DNA of 64,000 nt. Origin: Parcubacteria group bacterium. Lineage in GTDB: Bacteria > Patescibacteriota > Microgenomatia > UBA1400 > PJMF01. This document shows positions 11,069-58,772 of this stretch, piece by piece (the first letter of the stretch is position 1; each line of letters starts with the position of its first letter). Position numbers and translations under genes: made by a program. The DNA is taken from assembly GCA_943350175.1 (NCBI GenBank), contig CALQZX010000001.1, positions 21,818 to 85,817 on the forward strand. The letters are read 5' to 3'. A model generated the notes under the pieces. It was given only the letters and a program-made list of their open reading frames with translations, was not told the origin of the DNA and did no database searches.

Positions 11069-11145
11069 TGGTGGGTGTGCTTGGAATCGAACCAAGGACC
11101 TCAGTCTTATCAGGACTGCGCTCTAACCATCTGAGCTACACACCC
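11069..11145 (-). tRNA. tRNA-Ile (anticodon GAT), CCA encoded
   Basis: Reverse complement GGGTGTGTAGCTCAGATGGTTAGAGCGCAGTCCTGATAAGACTGAGGTCCTTGGTTCGATTCCAAGCACACCCACCA folds as a canonical cloverleaf. Near-identical to bacterial tRNA-Ile(GAU). Confidence 0.85.
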
Positions 11146-13012: not shown

Positions 13013-14492
<1,480 letters not shown>

Positions 14493-14895
14493 AAGTTTGA
14501 TTAGCTCTAAAAAACTTTTAACTACTCATTAAATCCGAAGATCTTTTTGATAAGCAAAAGCAAAATTTACTAAAAAATTGACGGACTTTTCCCTTGCGAG
14601 AAAAATCCTTGCACACTTTCTATCACTATAATTATTTCCAATTGACTGTTTACTTTTTAAAGATCTTTTGACTCAACTTAGTTTGGCCGCAAACAAAAAA
14701 AAGGAGAGAAAAACTTGTTAGCTTTCCTTTTTTATCTAAGCGCTGAGTAATTTTATTCTTAGTCAGAACAAAATCGTTGAGTGGGAGTTATTCTAAGGGC
14801 AAGTTTATGAAAAGACAATAGTCAATCTAGGGCAATTTACAGATTGCTTTGCAAGCAGTTATTCTTATTTTGCTGCAACTCTATTATACTTTTGT

Positions 14896-52659: not shown

Positions 52660-52775
52660 TTTTTAGGTGCTCTATTGTCTAGCAAGTGTATTCCAAATCC
52701 TTTAATAAAGATAAATCATATCAGAGCAAACAGAGCTTTGCTATCTGCTCATAGCCTATATGAAAACTTTTTTTC

Positions 52776-53927
52776 TTGCTAATATATATGCATATGGAAA
52801 ATGAAATAAATATTGAATCTCAGAATCAATCAGATAGCAGTAATTTAATAAATCATGACTTATCAGTAAATTTTTCAAAAAAGAGTCGGTCTTTAAATAC
52901 TGTCTTCTTTGCTGTTCTGCTAATTATTACTGGCGTGGCTGTATTTTTTGGGTACAAATATTATCAGCTGCTCAATCAAACAAAAACTCTTAAAGAATTT
53001 AAAGACGCAGCTTTGAAAGTGAATGAAGTAATCACTTCGACTTTGACCCCAGCTGTGACTTCTGTTTTAGATTCTAGCTCGATTGCAGATTGGGAGACAT
53101 ATGAAAATTCATCACTTGGTTTTAAGATAAAATATCCGCCATCGATTGAAGTAGAAAAAGAATTTGACGATGCGAATAATAGAGCAACTTCTTTTTCTGG
53201 AGAAAATCTTAAATTTGAAGTAATGCTGCGTTCAAAAAACAGTGGCATTTCTTTGGACAGCTACTTCTACATGGATTCTCCAGTGTCTAGAAAAATTAAT
53301 TTATTGGGAAAATCAGCCAGTGTCTATGAGTTGGCTGATGGATATTGCGATGGTCCTGGATGTAGTGAACCATCAATAACTGTGGTTACAGAAAACGACT
53401 TAGAATTGTTTCACATTAGTTTTTTTGGAGATGCGGAGCTATCAAAATTAGAACAACAAGTGTTGGGAACTTTTGAATTTATTGATAAAACAAGTATGAC
53501 TATTGATAAGCAACCAAATCCACCAGCTGGCTGGATTGCCCATAATTTTCCTCTTAAAAGTTTAATAATTTATACTCCAGCAAAGTGGCAATCTAGTGCT
53601 GAAAATTTTGCAGACATTCCATCGACTTTACTTCGTTTCTGGGAAGCTGGCGATGAGAAAAATTCCACCATACAACTGAACATTACAAATAACTGGGATA
53701 ATATGGGAATTGGATCAAATTACACCTATTTCACTGTTGCTGGTGACATTCAAGCTTATAGAATTGACCCTCCTAAAATGGAAGAAAAAACTCTAGATAG
53801 ATACCAGACCAACTTTTATTTTGAAAGAAAAGGGCAAGTCTATTCACTACTTTGCGTGCACAATTGGATGAAAGCAAATATTGAGACTTGTGAAAAGATG
53901 CTGCAAACAATGAAGTTCACTGATTAA
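52776..53927 (+). CDS. Hypothetical membrane-anchored protein
   Basis: N-terminal TM (VFFAVLLIITGVAVFFGY), large extracytoplasmic region, no motif recognised. Confidence 0.3.
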   Translation: MLIYMHMENEINIESQNQSDSSNLINHDLSVNFSKKSRSLNTVFFAVLLIITGVAVFFGYKYYQLLNQTKTLKEFKDAALKVNEVITSTLTPAVTSVLDSSSIADWETYENSSLGFKIKYPPSIEVEKEFDDANNRATSFSGENLKFEVMLRSKNSGISLDSYFYMDSPVSRKINLLGKSASVYELADGYCDGPGCSEPSITVVTENDLELFHISFFGDAELSKLEQQVLGTFEFIDKTSMTIDKQPNPPAGWIAHNFPLKSLIIYTPAKWQSSAENFADIPSTLLRFWEAGDEKNSTIQLNITNNWDNMGIGSNYTYFTVAGDIQAYRIDPPKMEEKTLDRYQTNFYFERKGQVYSLLCVHNWMKANIETCEKMLQTMKFTD

Positions 53928-54000
53928 AAGTGATGGCACAAGTGGACTATGTGAGAACTTTCTATCAAATATCTATAATTCAAAATGATGTTAAAATTAA

Positions 54001-54717
54001 TTGTGTATGACTTCAGAATTACCAGGAAAAGAAAAAGAATTGCAGGGTTATAAATTGTCGGAGATTTTTGATATCTCAAAAATGGTCAGCTTTTATAATG
54101 AAAAAATATGGCCAATAATTTCATTTTCATATCTCAAAAAGATTAATTATTGGGTGCTTGGAAGAAAATTGCAAATAAAAGAAGGCGAAAAAATTTTAGA
54201 GGTTGGATCTGGTAGCGAAATAAATTACAGTGCTGTAGCTAAAAAGGTGGGAAAAGATGGTTTGTACGTTGCTCTCGATGTAGACGAAAAAGTTCAAGCA
54301 CGTGCAAAAAAATCATATTTATTTTTTCTTAAAGGAAACAAAGGTGAAGAAAAAGGAAAAGCAGAGCATGCGGTTGGAGATGGCGTAAATTCTTTGCCAT
54401 TTGCTGCCGACACTTTTGATAGCATTGTTGCGAGTAATTTTACTGGAATGAATAAAAATGAAAATATTTTTTCTACAAAAGGGTGGGATTTATTTTTGAA
54501 AGAAGCTTTGAGAGTGCTGAAACCAGGGGGAAAAATTGCTTCTTCTTATTTTGAGTTCCAAATTCCACTCGCATCTATTCTTTATTTTCATAAGTTCAAA
54601 AAAGCTGGATTTGAGAATGTTTCCCTTAGTCCAGGAAACCCATCTTTTATGTTAATAGGTATGCATTGGATAATTAGTGGTGTAAAACCAAACCAAGATT
54701 CAGGACAAGAATCATAA
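54001..54717 (+). CDS. Class I SAM-dependent methyltransferase
   Basis: ILEVGSGSE motif I, VALDVDE acidic motif II, LKPGGKI motif post-II. Confidence 0.55.
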   Translation: MCMTSELPGKEKELQGYKLSEIFDISKMVSFYNEKIWPIISFSYLKKINYWVLGRKLQIKEGEKILEVGSGSEINYSAVAKKVGKDGLYVALDVDEKVQARAKKSYLFFLKGNKGEEKGKAEHAVGDGVNSLPFAADTFDSIVASNFTGMNKNENIFSTKGWDLFLKEALRVLKPGGKIASSYFEFQIPLASILYFHKFKKAGFENVSLSPGNPSFMLIGMHWIISGVKPNQDSGQES

Positions 54718-54776
54718 AAAATTAACTTAATGCATATTGAAGATAACATTTAATTTATCTAAAAATTCTTTGCCAG

Positions 54777-54839
54777 TTCGAATCCAACTGTGGGTAACGC
54801 TGTTATAGTGACGCTGTCTTGAGGAGAAAAAATGGATGG
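54777..54839. repeat. 63-bp direct repeat copy A (tRNA-Gln downstream flank-like)
   Basis: ttcgaatccaactgtgggtaacgctgttatagtgacgctgtcttgaggagaaaaaatggatgg is about 95% identical to 55272..55334. Followed by a degenerate tRNA-3'-end-like 30 bp that is also present at 53927..53963. Confidence 0.8.
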
Positions 54840-54876
54840 CACAAGTGGACTATGTCAGAACTTTTTTTATGAATTC

Positions 54877-55236
54877 TTACTCTCGTTTAAATTTCTCATA
54901 AGCATTTTGTACAGATCTTCTATTTTGCTCATGAAAGTCTTTGAAAATATTAGATATTGGAACTCCACTGGTTAATCTTCTCATAAATGAATCAGCTATC
55001 TCTTGCAAATCTTCCAAATTTCCATCTATTGCTAAACTATCCTTAATTCTAGAAAAATCTGGTTTGCCATTATTGTTTTCAGTAAAAAAGACATGAAATC
55101 CAGTCCCTCCATGTGGAGTTGGGATAATGACTAAGTGAGTTTCATTATAAAACCCATGCGCTTGAGATCCCTTAAATTGAATTTCTCCATTTTTAATTTC
55201 TCCAGTATCCACAGCGCTTTCAGATGATTGAATCAT
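54877..55236 (-). CDS. Hypothetical protein (between the direct repeats)
   Basis: 119-aa ORF, no motif recognised. Confidence 0.3.
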   Translation of the reverse strand: MIQSSESAVDTGEIKNGEIQFKGSQAHGFYNETHLVIIPTPHGGTGFHVFFTENNNGKPDFSRIKDSLAIDGNLEDLQEIADSFMRRLTSGVPISNIFKDFHEQNRRSVQNAYEKFKRE

Positions 55237-55271
55237 ATTAAGTCTAAATTATATAAGAAAAAGGTATTTCG

Positions 55272-55334
55272 TTCTAATCCAACTGTGGGTACTGCTGTTA
55301 TAGTGACGCTGTCTTGAGGAGAAAAAATGGATGC
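55272..55334. repeat. 63-bp direct repeat copy B abutting the tRNA-Gln 3' end
   Basis: ttctaatccaactgtgggtactgctgttatagtgacgctgtcttgaggagaaaaaatggatgc. Its last 7 nt are the CCA/discriminator/acceptor of tRNA-Gln on the minus strand. Confidence 0.8.
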
Positions 55335-55401
55335 CCGACGTGGATTCGAACCACGATTGAAGGCTTCAAAGGCCTCTGTCCTGCCATTAGACGATCGGGC
55401 A
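55328..55401 (-). tRNA. tRNA-Gln (anticodon TTG), CCA encoded
   Basis: Reverse complement TGCCCGATCGTCTAATGGCAGGACAGAGGCCTTTGAAGCCTTCAATCGTGGTTCGAATCCACGTCGGGCATCCA. 3-bp D stem, anticodon loop CTTTGAA, T loop TTCGAAT. Confidence 0.8.
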
Positions 55402-55434
55402 ATCTGTTAAGAGGGCTCTATTATATTTCGGACC

Positions 55435-55471
55435 CTGTCTTTTTGCAATGCAACGTATTGCAAAAAGACAG
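55435..55471. other. Perfect 15-bp-stem hairpin (ctgtctttttgcaat-gcaacgt-attgcaaaaagacag) flanked by a 12-bp direct repeat
   Basis: Stem arms are exact reverse complements. atttcggaccct occurs at 55425 and again at 55496, the latter followed by a T9 run. Confidence 0.7.
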
Positions 55472-55519
55472 CAGGTACGAAAGATACCTTGCGTGAATTT
55501 CGGACCCTCCCTTTTTTTT

Positions 55520-56308
55520 TCAAAGGGCAGCAAGGACAAAATATTGATTTAGTCTATTTGACTTGCCATCAGCAAAAAAGCTATCAACTACTTTTAAACC
55601 ACTTCCTTTTGCGATTTCGATCATTTCTTCTTCATTGATTTGATGACAATAGCGAAATACTTGATTGGCTTTTTCGCCTTTTCGCCAATCCAGTAAAAAA
55701 TCATTTTTTTCTAAATTTATTGAGAGGAAAATCAACTTAATTTTTTGCCAAATATTTATTTTTGAATTTTTCAGAATTTTTTTTAAGTTTAAAATATTTT
55801 TTTCAAAGCGATCTTGCTCTTTAGCAAATTGCCAATTGCTTACTATTATCAAGCCTCCTTTACTCAAACTACTTTTCACACTTTCAAAAAGCGACCTTCT
55901 CAATTTAAAAGAAGCTAAATGATGAGTGAGTCCAAAAATCGTGATTAAGTTAAATTTTTCCTTAGTTTCTAAAATTATTTTTTGATTTTTCAAGTAATTA
56001 TCTACCAGATCAAAATATTTGAATTCTTGCTTCACATGCTTGTTTTTGGCAATTCTCAATAATTCTTTTGAATTATCTAAGCCCAAATAAGTGAAATCGC
56101 CGCATATATTTTTTTCTAGAAACTCAGAGAACCTACCGTTACCGCAAGCAATATCTAAAACATTTAAATTTTGTTTTTTTGGTGAAACTTCTAAGATCTT
56201 TTCCCATCCAGACCAAAAAAAGTTGCGACTGTCGCTAAAGTCTTCACTAATTTGTGCGTAGAAATCCTGATTAAGCTGATTAAAAGCTTTGATTAAATAA
56301 TTCTTCAT
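55520..56308 (-). CDS. Class I SAM-dependent methyltransferase
   Basis: VLDIACGNGRFS motif I, YLGLDNS motif II; 262 aa. Confidence 0.6.
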   Translation of the reverse strand: MKNYLIKAFNQLNQDFYAQISEDFSDSRNFFWSGWEKILEVSPKKQNLNVLDIACGNGRFSEFLEKNICGDFTYLGLDNSKELLRIAKNKHVKQEFKYFDLVDNYLKNQKIILETKEKFNLITIFGLTHHLASFKLRRSLFESVKSSLSKGGLIIVSNWQFAKEQDRFEKNILNLKKILKNSKINIWQKIKLIFLSINLEKNDFLLDWRKGEKANQVFRYCHQINEEEMIEIAKGSGLKVVDSFFADGKSNRLNQYFVLAAL

Positions 56309-56348: not shown

Positions 56349-58163
56349 TTGATGCCAAACGACATGATTTCGCTACTGCTAGATTTGGAGAGTAACCTCG
56401 ATAAGCCAATCGAGGATATTTTGCGTTTGATTAAGAAATATCAAAAAGCTGACGGTTCGCATTGGAATTACGCGAGCATTATCGAGCAATATAAAAATCT
56501 GGCAGGCACGCAGGGTCTAAAAGAATTCAATCCAAAACTCGTTGAAAAAATTTTAATGAAACCGGTGCGCACTCTCTCAGGTGTTGCTCCGGTGACTGTT
56601 TTGACCAAACCTTATCCATGTCCAGGCAAATGTATTTTTTGTCCAAATGATTTGCGCATGCCAAAAAGTTATTTGGCAGATGAGCCAGGAGCGCAAAGAG
56701 CTGAGAAAAACTATTTCGATCCATATTTACAAACTACAAACCGTTTGGAAGCCCTCCACTCTATGGGGCATCAGGTGGATAAAGTAGAGTTAATCATTCT
56801 AGGTGGGACTTGGACTGCTTATCCTGAGTCATATCAAATCTGGTTTGTCAAAGAATGCTTTAGAGCGATGAATGATTTTCAAAGCAAAAATGACACAGAA
56901 AAAATTACCAAAAAATACCAAGATTTTCAAAAAAAATTCCAGGAAACTGAAAAAAAATGGCAGACCAATACTTTTTTAAATACCAATCCGCTGGAAAATA
57001 AAGAAAATTTTTCTAAGCTACAAATCAAAGGTGAAGATATTTCTGAAACCTACAATCAATTGGTGAAGAAATATTATTTAGAACCAGAAAATGCTTTGGG
57101 AGTGGTGCAATACCAAAAAGCAACTTGGACGGAGCTGGAAAAAGAACAAGTTAAAAACGAAACAGCCTTGCAGCGTTGTGTTGGATTGGTGATCGAGACT
57201 AGACCAGATGAAATTACCCCTGCAAGTGTCAAGAAAATCCGCCATTTAGGAGCAACTAAAGTTCAGTTGGGAATTCAATCTCTGGATGATGAGATTTTGC
57301 GTAAAAATAAAAGAGGCCACGATGTGAAGACGATCAGAACAGCTTTTTCTTTACTTAGACAAGCTGGTTTTAAATTGCACATTCATTTTATGGCCAATCT
57401 CTATGGCGGCAGTGTGGCCAAAGATAAAAGAGACTTTGCCAAACTTTTTAGAGATCGGGATTTTCGTCCAGATGAATTGAAAATTTATCCTTGCTCGCTA
57501 ATTGAAACAGCGGAATTAATGAGATATTACAAGAAAGGCTTATGGAAGCCGTATTCTCATGAAGAACTATTGGAAATTACTTCTTTTACCCTAACTCACA
57601 CTCCAGCCTATTGTCGCATCACCAGAATGATCCGCGATATTCCTTCTCAAGATATCGTGGTCGGCAATACTAAGAGTAATTTTAGACAAATTGCTGAGCA
57701 ACATGCCATAAAAACTAATCAAAAAATGCAGGATATTCGTTCAAGAGAAATTCGTTCATCTAACTTTGAGATAGATGGAGTGCAATTAAAGATTAAAAAT
57801 TACCAAACCAGTATTAGTAATGAAAAATTCTTGCAATTTGTTTATCAGGACAAGATTCTAGCCTTCTTGCGTTTGAGTTTGCCTCTGTCACCAACTAATG
57901 AAGTCAGCGATGAATTAAACGGAGCCGCCATGATCAGGGAAATTCATGTTTATGGCCGTAGTTTGGCAATTGGTCAAAAAGATCATGATGACAAGGCTCA
58001 ACATTTCGGTTTTGGCAAAAAATTGATTGCCAAAGCAGCCGCAATAAGCAAAAAAGCCGGCTTTTCTAAATTAGCGGTAATTTCAGCAATCGGAACGAAA
58101 GAATATTACAGAAAAAGAGGTTTTAGCGATGGCGAACTCTATCAGTTTCTCCATCTTAGTTAA
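56349..58163 (+). CDS. Elp3-family radical SAM / GNAT acetyltransferase (tRNA U34 carboxymethyl-uridine synthase homologue)
   Basis: Radical SAM cluster PYPCPGKCIFCPN, Elp3 central region, C-terminal GNAT (REIHVYGRSLAIGQ...FGFGKKLIAKAAAISKKAGFSKLAVISAIGTKEYYRKRGF). Confidence 0.75.
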   Translation: MMPNDMISLLLDLESNLDKPIEDILRLIKKYQKADGSHWNYASIIEQYKNLAGTQGLKEFNPKLVEKILMKPVRTLSGVAPVTVLTKPYPCPGKCIFCPNDLRMPKSYLADEPGAQRAEKNYFDPYLQTTNRLEALHSMGHQVDKVELIILGGTWTAYPESYQIWFVKECFRAMNDFQSKNDTEKITKKYQDFQKKFQETEKKWQTNTFLNTNPLENKENFSKLQIKGEDISETYNQLVKKYYLEPENALGVVQYQKATWTELEKEQVKNETALQRCVGLVIETRPDEITPASVKKIRHLGATKVQLGIQSLDDEILRKNKRGHDVKTIRTAFSLLRQAGFKLHIHFMANLYGGSVAKDKRDFAKLFRDRDFRPDELKIYPCSLIETAELMRYYKKGLWKPYSHEELLEITSFTLTHTPAYCRITRMIRDIPSQDIVVGNTKSNFRQIAEQHAIKTNQKMQDIRSREIRSSNFEIDGVQLKIKNYQTSISNEKFLQFVYQDKILAFLRLSLPLSPTNEVSDELNGAAMIREIHVYGRSLAIGQKDHDDKAQHFGFGKKLIAKAAAISKKAGFSKLAVISAIGTKEYYRKRGFSDGELYQFLHLS

Positions 58164-58441
58164 ATAAAATCAATTTTCAATTTTTTATCCATGGCTTCTG
58201 CCAACATCATGAGACTACCGATTGTGGCGTTTCTGGTGCCAGATTCAATTTTGGCGATAATGCTGCGATCAATATTTGCTTTCTTAGCAATTGCTTCTTG
58301 AGTTAAACCAAGTTCCTTGCGAGTTTTTTTGAATTCAGCAATTACCTCATAGTAATCATTGCTTTTTTTTGCAAGAGATTTCTGAGTTTGATCAAATTGC
58401 TCTCCCCACTCTTTTAGTGATAAGTCTTTATTTTTTTTCAT
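58160..58441 (-). CDS. XRE-family HTH antitoxin (HigA-like)
   Basis: LGLTQEAIAKKANIDRSIIAKIESGTRNATIGSLMMLAEAM is a Cro/C1-type HTH; 93 aa. Overlaps the upstream toxin-like gene by 14 nt. Confidence 0.6.
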   Translation of the reverse strand: MKKNKDLSLKEWGEQFDQTQKSLAKKSNDYYEVIAEFKKTRKELGLTQEAIAKKANIDRSIIAKIESGTRNATIGSLMMLAEAMDKKLKIDFI

Positions 58442-58772
58442 AGTTTTTTAACCTTTTCAAAGCTTTAGTTAATTCTTTTTTTGGTGTTTTCTGTGTTTTT
58501 TTAAGAAAGGCAGATAGCACAACTATCTCATTTTTTAGTACGTAAGCGTAAATTGCTCGCCATTGTCCATTTTGTTTTATTCTTATTTCAAATAAAACAG
58601 AGTCTATTTTTTTGGCAAAAGGCATTTCTAGTTTGCCTTTCTCTTCTAGTATTTGAAACAAGTCGTTAAATCTGGCTCTAATTTTTAGTGGGAAAGAATC
58701 AAGCTCTTTTATTGCGGAATAATTGATTGCTACTTGTTTCTTCACTGAGCTAAATTGTGACATAAAAGTCAC
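58428..58772 (-). CDS. RelE/ParE-superfamily toxin (phage gp49/HigB-like)
   Basis: 114 aa, basic C-terminus. Pattern KIRARFNDLFQILEEKG...AKKIDSVLFEIRIKQNGQWRAIYAYV..EIVVLSAF resembles gp49-like HigB toxins. Toxin-first gene order with an XRE partner. Confidence 0.5.
   Translation of the reverse strand: MTFMSQFSSVKKQVAINYSAIKELDSFPLKIRARFNDLFQILEEKGKLEMPFAKKIDSVLFEIRIKQNGQWRAIYAYVLKNEIVVLSAFLKKTQKTPKKELTKALKRLKNYEKK

Follow-up and report, generated by a model that had tools for sequence, protein, structure and literature searches.

Repeated integration at the 3' extreme of tRNA-Gln(UUG), probably by large serine recombinases, as the likely origin of a small genomic island in a Parcubacteria group bacterium

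The surroundings of tRNA-Gln(UUG) in a 64-kb stretch of the genome of a Parcubacteria group bacterium (contig CALQZX010000001.1, positions 21,818 to 85,817; this whole stretch is the window, and unlabelled coordinates refer to it) raise the question of how short direct repeats, one of which runs straight into the tRNA gene, came to alternate with single genes. An earlier note, made from the sequence alone, saw here either a decayed hotspot of integrase-mediated insertion at a tRNA gene or a local tandem duplication. The explanation that we consider probable is that a small genomic island occupies 52748-55333 and arose by repeated site-specific integration at the 3' extreme of tRNA-Gln(UUG), the enzymes being members of a large serine recombinase (LSR) family that is widespread in the Candidate Phyla Radiation (CPR)/Patescibacteria.

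The longer repeat, which we call F63, occurs at 54776-54838 and 55271-55333 with mismatches at 3 of the 63 positions, and its second copy continues into the CCA, the discriminator and A72 of the tRNA gene (55328-55401, minus strand), which both ARAGORN and Rfam identify. The shorter repeat, a', is present at 53926-53961 and 54829-54864 (33 of 36 positions identical), with a 29-nt core (ATGGCACAAGTGGACTATGTSAGAACTTT) at 53933-53961 and 54836-54864 that contains 1 mismatch. The spacing between paired copies is 495 bp for F63 and 903 bp for a'. Both pairs had been described correctly in the earlier note, including the recurrence of a 30-bp fragment upstream of the methyltransferase gene, as had the order of fragment, methyltransferase, repeat plus fragment, 119-aa open reading frame (ORF) and repeat plus tRNA-Gln. 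A third, decayed a' was found at 52748-52770, directly upstream of a 377-aa gene, and the order in the window is then decayed a', cargo 1, a', methyltransferase, F63 joined to a', 119-aa gene and F63 joined to tRNA-Gln. When up to 3 mismatches are allowed, the 64-kb window contains no further copy of F63 or a'; the expectation from dinucleotide shuffles is 0. The features of the locus are the following.

52748..52770, plus strand: Site 0, a decayed a', the oldest and distal junction, followed by a conserved region upstream of cargo 1.
52794..53927, plus strand: cargo 1, 377 aa (start MENEIN...), its N-terminus a membrane anchor; no match in Pfam.
53929..53961, plus strand: Site A, a GTGATG junction and a' (ATGGCACAAGTGGACTATGTGAGAACTTT); attL-type, with non-element sequence on the left and the P' half-site on the right.
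54007..54717, plus strand: cargo 2, a 236-aa class I S-adenosylmethionine-dependent methyltransferase (Pfam Methyltransf_11/25).
54776..54864, plus strand: Site B, composed of F63 (54776-54835), core ATG and a' (54836-54864); an internal attP-type junction between two units.
54877..55236, minus strand: cargo 3, an uncharacterised protein of 119 aa without a match in Pfam.
55271..55333, plus strand: Site C, F63 joined to tRNA-Gln at the core ATG (55331-55333); an attR-type junction.
55328..55401, minus strand: tRNA-Gln(UUG), intact (ARAGORN; Rfam, 60.3 bits) and conserved in all relatives.

One question then is whether these segments are inserted DNA at all. The window is contained in the 168-kb metagenome contig k141_215323 (ENA ERZ27280308). 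Eleven species-level relatives were retrieved by way of the neighbouring Elp3-like protein, the closest of them bearing CPR-type labels such as Microgenomates and Pacebacteria. In every relative that reaches that far tRNA-Gln (minus), a 262-aa methyltransferase (minus) and Elp3 (plus) are syntenic and conserved, while the DNA on the 3' side of tRNA-Gln differs and homologues of the three island genes are absent from all 11, so that the inter-repeat segments are variable and not, as in one refuting case named by the earlier note, present in all relatives. In the relative L005 nothing separates the 3' end of tRNA-Gln from a flank that in L014 stands to the left of the first a', and between this a' and tRNA-Gln L014 has five units in 4.1 kb. 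A three-way alignment gives L005 as the sum of the L014 left flank, TGATG and the L014 tRNA side, and empty and occupied sites have only TGATG(+C) in common. This empty site establishes the arrays as inserted DNA, and the idea of an integration hotspot at tRNA-Gln stands, resting both on L005 and L014 and on the locus specificity of the repeats. The same alignment places the crossover within TGATG, equivalent to C71-A72-U73-C74 of the tRNA, with practically no tRNA sequence duplicated. The left flank of the empty attB sites is not conserved. In L014 and L020, which are related strains, the terminal unit is common and the internal units differ. Among array-free relatives (L007:8940-9057, L008:8795-8910, L011:8770-8886, L017 and L024) a terminator-like hairpin follows tRNA-Gln, and after it comes a conserved block of ~60 nt (...ACTTTAGTTCGCG...GCGAAG...) with no Rfam match.

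These comparisons also bear on a local tandem duplication, in which a unit of fragment, gene and 63-bp repeat would have been copied and its gene then diverged or replaced. Such an event would account for the presence of each end in two near-identical copies at the spacings given above, but the two cargo genes are unrelated, a repeat search detected no residual homology between the two inter-repeat segments, the same ends surround other genes in other genomes, and the empty-site comparison indicates insertion at a fixed core. We find this explanation scarcely credible.

The sites that bound the units are themselves widespread. Fuzzy searches of the relatives located a' in L003 (three copies), L006 and L010, and a pattern scan of metagenome contigs gave 13 more loci, several with 2-5 copies, to which follow-up loci added more, the total being 34 copies (at no more than 3 mismatches) with 24 distinct sequences in more than 20 contigs of related CPR bacteria, in arrays of 1-5. 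The orientation is single and, where the contig includes a tRNA, a' lies always on the 3' side of tRNA-Gln(UUG), at a distance of 0.4-10 kb; a search of viral contigs for a' gave 0 matches. The repeats keep to this locus and are not the dispersed intergenic motif that the earlier note had named as a refuting case, since none occurs elsewhere in the window and the 610-kb contig L018 has a' matches at its tRNA-Gln locus only. The sequence to the left of a', here termed F, falls into several families, of which F63 is found in L003, L004, L010, L021, L035 and L036. F usually starts with an inverted copy of the a' end (AGTTCTAAC...GTTAGAACT), F63 itself starting with an inverted, tRNA-T-arm-like copy of a' (GTTCGAATCCAACTGTGGGTA), and the inverted ends co-vary, as AAGTTC...GAACTT against AGGTTC...GAACCT in the diverged lineage L040. 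A second, plus-strand tRNA target was considered for the F63 start (TTCGAATCCAACTGTGGGTA) and dropped because no tRNA 3' end in the window matches it: an intact donor is absent, and the tRNA-Arg and tRNA-His genes at 39.3 kb differ from it.

Around these ends the genes change. F63 and a' flank at least six unrelated cargo genes (window, L003, L004, L010 and L021), and cargo enzymes in the window and relatives comprise an HD hydrolase, a cupin, a 2-hydroxyacid dehydrogenase, an inositol-monophosphatase-like protein, an alpha/beta hydrolase, NUDIX, an epimerase and methyltransferases. Each junction of the window has counterparts elsewhere. Site 0 with the upstream region and start of cargo 1 aligns to an intact a' and its downstream sequence in L014 (4096-4150) and L020, the N-terminus and upstream region of cargo 1 being homologous to the tRNA-proximal unit of both. 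The 3' end of cargo 1, which forms the sequence left of Site A, is conserved in L036, where different DNA comes after it. A homologue of cargo 2 in L040 (53% identical) is likewise the only gene of its unit, which follows an a' variant directly, next to tRNA-Gln, at a different array rank from that in the window. The F63-a' architecture of Site B recurs at L003:1882-1970 and in L021. Cargo 3 has only 3 homologues among 5.8 billion proteins, and one of 82% identity stands in a differently composed unit beside the F63-tRNA junction in L035 and L036. At Site C the encoded CCA and the T-run after the tRNA both come from F63, and orthologous junctions are present in L004, L035 and L036, as well as in L003 and L010, where they are interrupted by an insertion sequence (IS). 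The IS copies (L003:2657-3806 and L010:2073-3228, approximate) have terminal inverted repeats of ~35 bp (GACACCGTTCaAAAACGGTCACC...) and encode a 342-aa transposase of the Mutator/IS256 family with an N-terminal zinc finger, to which an ORF at L026:2132-3280 is related. Their positions are ~2 nt apart and their target duplications differ (AATGGATG and AAAAATGGA), which indicates two independent insertions into the same att junction.

Which enzyme, then, might have made such insertions? In calling repeats of a tRNA 3' end the usual signature of integrases, the earlier note implied a tyrosine integrase, the fragments being decayed, displaced duplicates of the tRNA 3' end from the action of phage- or integrative and conjugative element (ICE)-type enzymes. 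Such scars would agree both with the presence of direct repeats and with a position at the 3' end of a tRNA gene. The likeness of the fragment to the tRNA is real, but it is weak and requires a 5-nt gap: a' has only ATG and 7 of the next 11 nt in common with the tRNA, and only TGATG is common to repeats and tRNA, so that the repeats cannot be taken as displaced copies. The fragments are, moreover, conserved as a distinct sequence across genomes, and since this conservation exceeds that of any neutral relic, a' is a conserved attP-type half-site and no degenerate tRNA fragment. As to the enzyme, tblastn with one CPR tyrosine recombinase (from L031) gave no match in the window, Pfam shows no integrase in the island cargo and flanking proteins or in the scanned cargo of relatives, none is annotated in those LSR-bearing units that have Pfam annotation, and the recombinase that stands at the tRNA junction in relatives is a serine recombinase. 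An origin by tyrosine integrases is, on these grounds, extremely improbable.

That serine recombinase is seen most clearly in L006, where a 506-aa LSR (L006:7491-9011; Resolvase PF00239, Recombinase PF07508 and Zn_ribbon_recom PF13408) abuts tRNA-Gln, its last ten codons (VMPDLDSNQD) being the antisense of the tRNA 3' end, and a' lies 7.7 kb away at the opposite end. LSR elements bounded in this way by a' and tRNA-Gln are repeated in L027 (10.3 kb), L029 (7.7 kb) and L030 (8.2 kb). The domain set is present in L027, L028, L029 and L030, that is, in relatives only and not in the window; L027 and L029 have small recombinase-less units distal to the LSR unit, and in L028 the LSR adjoins the same methyltransferase/Elp3/RecQ backbone as in the window. 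Unit sizes are bimodal, with ~34 units of 0.4-2.8 kb that lack an LSR and carry one or two genes, and LSR units (n=4) of 7.7-10.3 kb that are always beside tRNA-Gln.

The link between a' and this enzyme is provided by its reading frame. Rejoining the LSR 3' end to a' in silico, as in an excised circle, yields ...EYRSSVMALVDEVRTFF..., and the same tail is found in homologues that are not fused to a tRNA (P0028, ...EYRTNVLALINFVRTYY; P0022, ...VLRLMSELRTYF). Because of this match attP is predicted to lie within the 3' end of the recombinase gene, with a' as the P' arm that encodes the C-terminal tail, and the concentration of a' variation at third codon positions (39, against 23 and 11 at the others) would be a consequence. 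A separate candidate, a' as an independent micropeptide MA(Q/L)VD(Y/E)VRTF(F/Y), was rejected, only 11 codons being conserved and the ORFs stopping after 16-25 aa; the micropeptide-like pattern is what a recombinase tail-coding region would give. The L006-type family has 2504 matches at E<=1e-10, and in 57 of the best 120 homologues (P0001-P0120) the tail is an antisense T-loop peptide such as ...LPDLDSNQD or ...RDSNPD, which could serve as a simple marker both for integrated copies and for their target tRNA. Gene callers run most recombinases of this family on into the adjoining tRNA gene. Two same-family LSR elements stand in tandem at L031:8001-17521, P0072 preceding the second; a tyrosine-recombinase gene (L031:2882-3811) lies 4 kb upstream of them.

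The geometry of the half-sites can be compared with that of characterised serine integrases. Numbered from the T/G step of the core, the tRNA-Gln half-site (B') reads G CCCGACGTGGA TTCGAAC, with its outer motif at 13-19, and the a' half-site (P') reads G GCACAAGTGGA CTATG TCAGAAC, with its outer motif at 18-24; the B' role is assigned to the 3' part of tRNA-Gln on the plus strand, ATG CCCGACGTGGA TTCGAAC. The resemblance of a' to the tRNA is weak and gapped because the outer motif sits 5 bp further out in a'. In serine integrases the motif contacted by the zinc-ribbon domain (ZD) is at 16-24 in attP and at 11-19 in attB (Rutherford 2013; PMC3783163), and the outward shift between the tRNA and a' half-sites, a comparison of right half-sites only, equals this ZD shift of 5 bp. 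By analogy a' would mimic the tRNA half-site, and the offset of its outer motif would be the distinction between attP and attB that is known for LSRs. In the reconstituted attP of L006 an inner CAC..TG.A motif is common to the two sides. Displacements of 6, 12 or 42 nt are seen for the inverted outer motif of the small units, the last being the distance of this motif from the core in F63.

Inverted motifs at both ends of a unit also invite a different explanation, a DDE-transposon or a miniature inverted-repeat transposable element (MITE)-like element, whose subterminal inverted repeats would be a' and the inverted F motif and which would duplicate TGATG at the tRNA end as its target site. The units are indeed bounded by inverted a'-like motifs with (G)TGATG on both sides, and the co-variation of the ends in L040 would suit it. 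Nevertheless none of the units yielded a matching transposase, and the distance of the right inverted motif from the end varies (12-42 nt). Such an element would, moreover, account neither for the connection of a' with the reading frame of the LSR nor for the 5-bp half-site shift; we hold it to be very unlikely.

Integration by an LSR would proceed as follows. The attB would consist of any sequence downstream of the tRNA, the core TGATG and the acceptor and T-arm of the tRNA, and the attP of the F arm, the core and a'. Recombination would create a junction of flanking sequence with a' at the far end and a junction of F with the tRNA at the near end, after which the element would decay, or be non-autonomous, and the next would enter at the tRNA-side junction, leaving an internal F-a' junction behind. 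Since empty attB sites show no conservation in their left half, the F-tRNA junction may remain a usable target. Since new units would enter beside the tRNA, decay should be most advanced at the distal end, and the distal site of the window is the most decayed. The three units of the window are non-autonomous, because no LSR and no homologue of the queried tyrosine recombinase or IS transposase is encoded in the window. They are bounded by a' and F and carry only the methyltransferase, the 119-aa and the 377-aa proteins, and thus have the trait of cis-mobilizable elements (CIMEs), att-flanked and without recombination genes. It is an LSR that would have placed them, and they may now be either cis-mobilizable or fixed, CIME-like relics.

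Several observations weigh against this explanation. The 64-kb window contains no LSR, and single-query tblastn searches with one tyrosine recombinase (L031) and with one IS transposase found no homologue in it. The left arms (F) of the small units lack canonical attP symmetry, and no consistent spacing was obtained for them. Canonical LSRs recombine only attP with attB, not attP with attR (PMC3783163), so that repeated entry at the F-tRNA junction would need a tolerant left half-site, which is plausible. F63 is 94% identical between the window and L036, where adjacent coding sequence is 85% identical, and pure relic status would not seem to explain such conservation. Finally, the L036 homologue of the 119-aa gene occurs in a five-gene unit without an adjacent a'.

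Another proposal is that the array is an active cassette platform, in which one-gene, recombinase-less units with a' and F ends are captured, excised and shuffled in trans by an LSR encoded elsewhere, with tRNA-Gln as the docking site and a' kept by selection, in the manner of an integron. Of such a platform one would expect what is seen in several genomes, the same F63 and a' ends around six or more unrelated cargo genes, and also an a' that is nearly invariant in units with no recombinase gene to constrain it and an F63 more conserved than neighbouring coding DNA. The unit of a' and methyltransferase at 53% protein identity in another rank and another lineage, the common terminal unit of L014 and L020 beside different internal ones, and a cargo of metabolic enzymes and not of phage debris point in the same direction. 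Yet neither circular forms nor transposed copies were found, and no cassette recurred identically in a second genomic background. The geometry of the left arms is not that of a canonical attP, decay is seen at distal sites, a homologue of the 119-aa gene stands in L036 without a', and the window has no recombinase. Taken together, these leave the platform doubtful, with a small but appreciable chance of being right; if true, CPR bacteria would hold an LSR-run, integron-like gene-capture system docked at tRNA-Gln.

An att site may also contribute expression signals to plus-strand cargo. The a' of Site A opens a 25-codon mini-ORF (MAQVDYVRTFYQISIIQNDVKINCV; 53933-54010) whose stop overlaps the methyltransferase start (ATGA, 54007-54010), and GTGAGA-17-TATAAT (53951-53979), which resembles a promoter, shares sequence with the end of the same a'. 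A scan of the island for promoters and terminators gave counts that did not exceed those of shuffles; only two sites stood out, one promoter-like and upstream of tRNA-Gln, the other formed by the tRNA stem with the T-run of F63 behind it. A structured RNA or attC-like hairpin at Sites A, B and C was rejected for both strands, the fold z-scores (-1.45 to +0.75) being no better than those of shuffles, and Rfam found nothing on the locus apart from the tRNA. On the other side of tRNA-Gln, the spacer that separates the tRNA 5' end from the stop of the 262-aa methyltransferase contains a perfect 15-bp inverted repeat (55435-55449 and 55457-55471), two copies of ATTTCGGACCCTnnCTTTTT stand 72 nt apart within 55402-55520, and a promoter-like match, TTGCAA-17-TATAAT (55448-55420, minus), is positioned to drive tRNA-Gln.

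Two further features of the window lie outside the island. A Gp49-like/helix-turn-helix pair, probably a toxin-antitoxin system, stands at 58160-58772 between the Elp3-like and MazG-like genes and, being found among the relatives only in L007, would be a second small variable insertion near the locus. A 16S rRNA gene (13015-14493, minus) is followed by tRNA-Ile (11069-11145, minus), and since the window is without a match to 23S rRNA, the rRNA genes appear to be unlinked.

The result for the window itself is modest, an island of 2.6 kb with three accessory genes, and the wider family is of more interest. The data suggest a large LSR family, spread throughout the CPR, in which integration would swap the C-terminal tail of the enzyme, because attP sits in the 3' end of its gene. 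For many new serine integrases they would supply naturally paired attP and attB sequences, useful for genome engineering, and for very small genomes such integration would be a route by which single metabolic genes are gained and lost.

How, finally, does the locus compare with known systems? Integron arrays and clusters of attC sites lacking integron-integrases (CALINs) are similar in that they hold mostly single, unrelated and often metabolic genes in recombinase-free cassettes between conserved, imperfectly palindromic sites of 50-90 bp. Here, by contrast, there is no attC-type hairpin, gene orientation is mixed, the crossover would fall inside the site and not at an outer core, and the linked recombinase is a serine and not a tyrosine enzyme; no IntI is present within ~10 kb on either side of the array by Pfam annotation, and tblastn in the window was negative.

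In staphylococci the SCCmec and other SCC (staphylococcal cassette chromosome) composite islands are inserted by LSRs at the 3' end of rlmH (orfX). They share with the present array repeated entry beside a conserved gene and, in pseudo-SCC units, the lack of recombinase genes between att repeats. They differ in their CcrAB pair or CcrC, their protein-coding target, their larger units and att repeats that copy the target sequence.

The tRNA islands with the Islander signature carry tyrosine integrases, and serine integrases were, in the same reference of 2015, not known to target tRNA genes (PMC4383910). The tRNA 3' end, tandem arrays and gene content variable among relatives are common to both, whereas at the present locus neither a displaced tDNA fragment nor a tyrosine integrase was found. 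Because tRNA-island finders seek just these two things, CPR islands of the present kind go unseen. A literature search of incomplete coverage gave no description of this LSR family or of CPR tRNA-Gln arrays, which is weak evidence of novelty.

Similar evolutionary routes have been proposed for ICESt1-ICESt3 and for integrative and mobilizable elements (IMEs) under the CIME/accretion model (Pavlovic 2004; Bellanger 2011; reviewed in PMC5704250). The route that we propose for the window array is the same, although those elements mostly have tyrosine integrases, are conjugative and extend over tens of kb, and no conjugation genes were seen here.

The ssrA islands of Dehalococcoides form tandem arrays with the large serine recombinase DsiB and tmRNA as target (McMurdie et al. 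2011; PMC3146451). There, as here, tandem islands lie downstream of one small-RNA gene with a CcrB-like LSR at the island edge, junctions are flanked by conserved sequence, and some units lack a recombinase and have been proposed to be cis-mobilizable. Those islands, however, have a crossover in the T-loop, a 20-bp repeat of the gene 3' end, sizes of 10-30 kb and a six-gene integration module, whereas the present locus has a tRNA target, a crossover at 71-74, an attP predicted inside the recombinase gene and mostly one-gene units of 0.4-2.8 kb. On the sequence evidence we would class the locus as an LSR-driven tandem island with CIME accretion, neither an integron nor a tyrosine-integrase tRNA island, which would depart from known cases in having a serine recombinase that specifies a tRNA gene, a crossover at its extreme 3' end, an attP within the recombinase gene and very small units.

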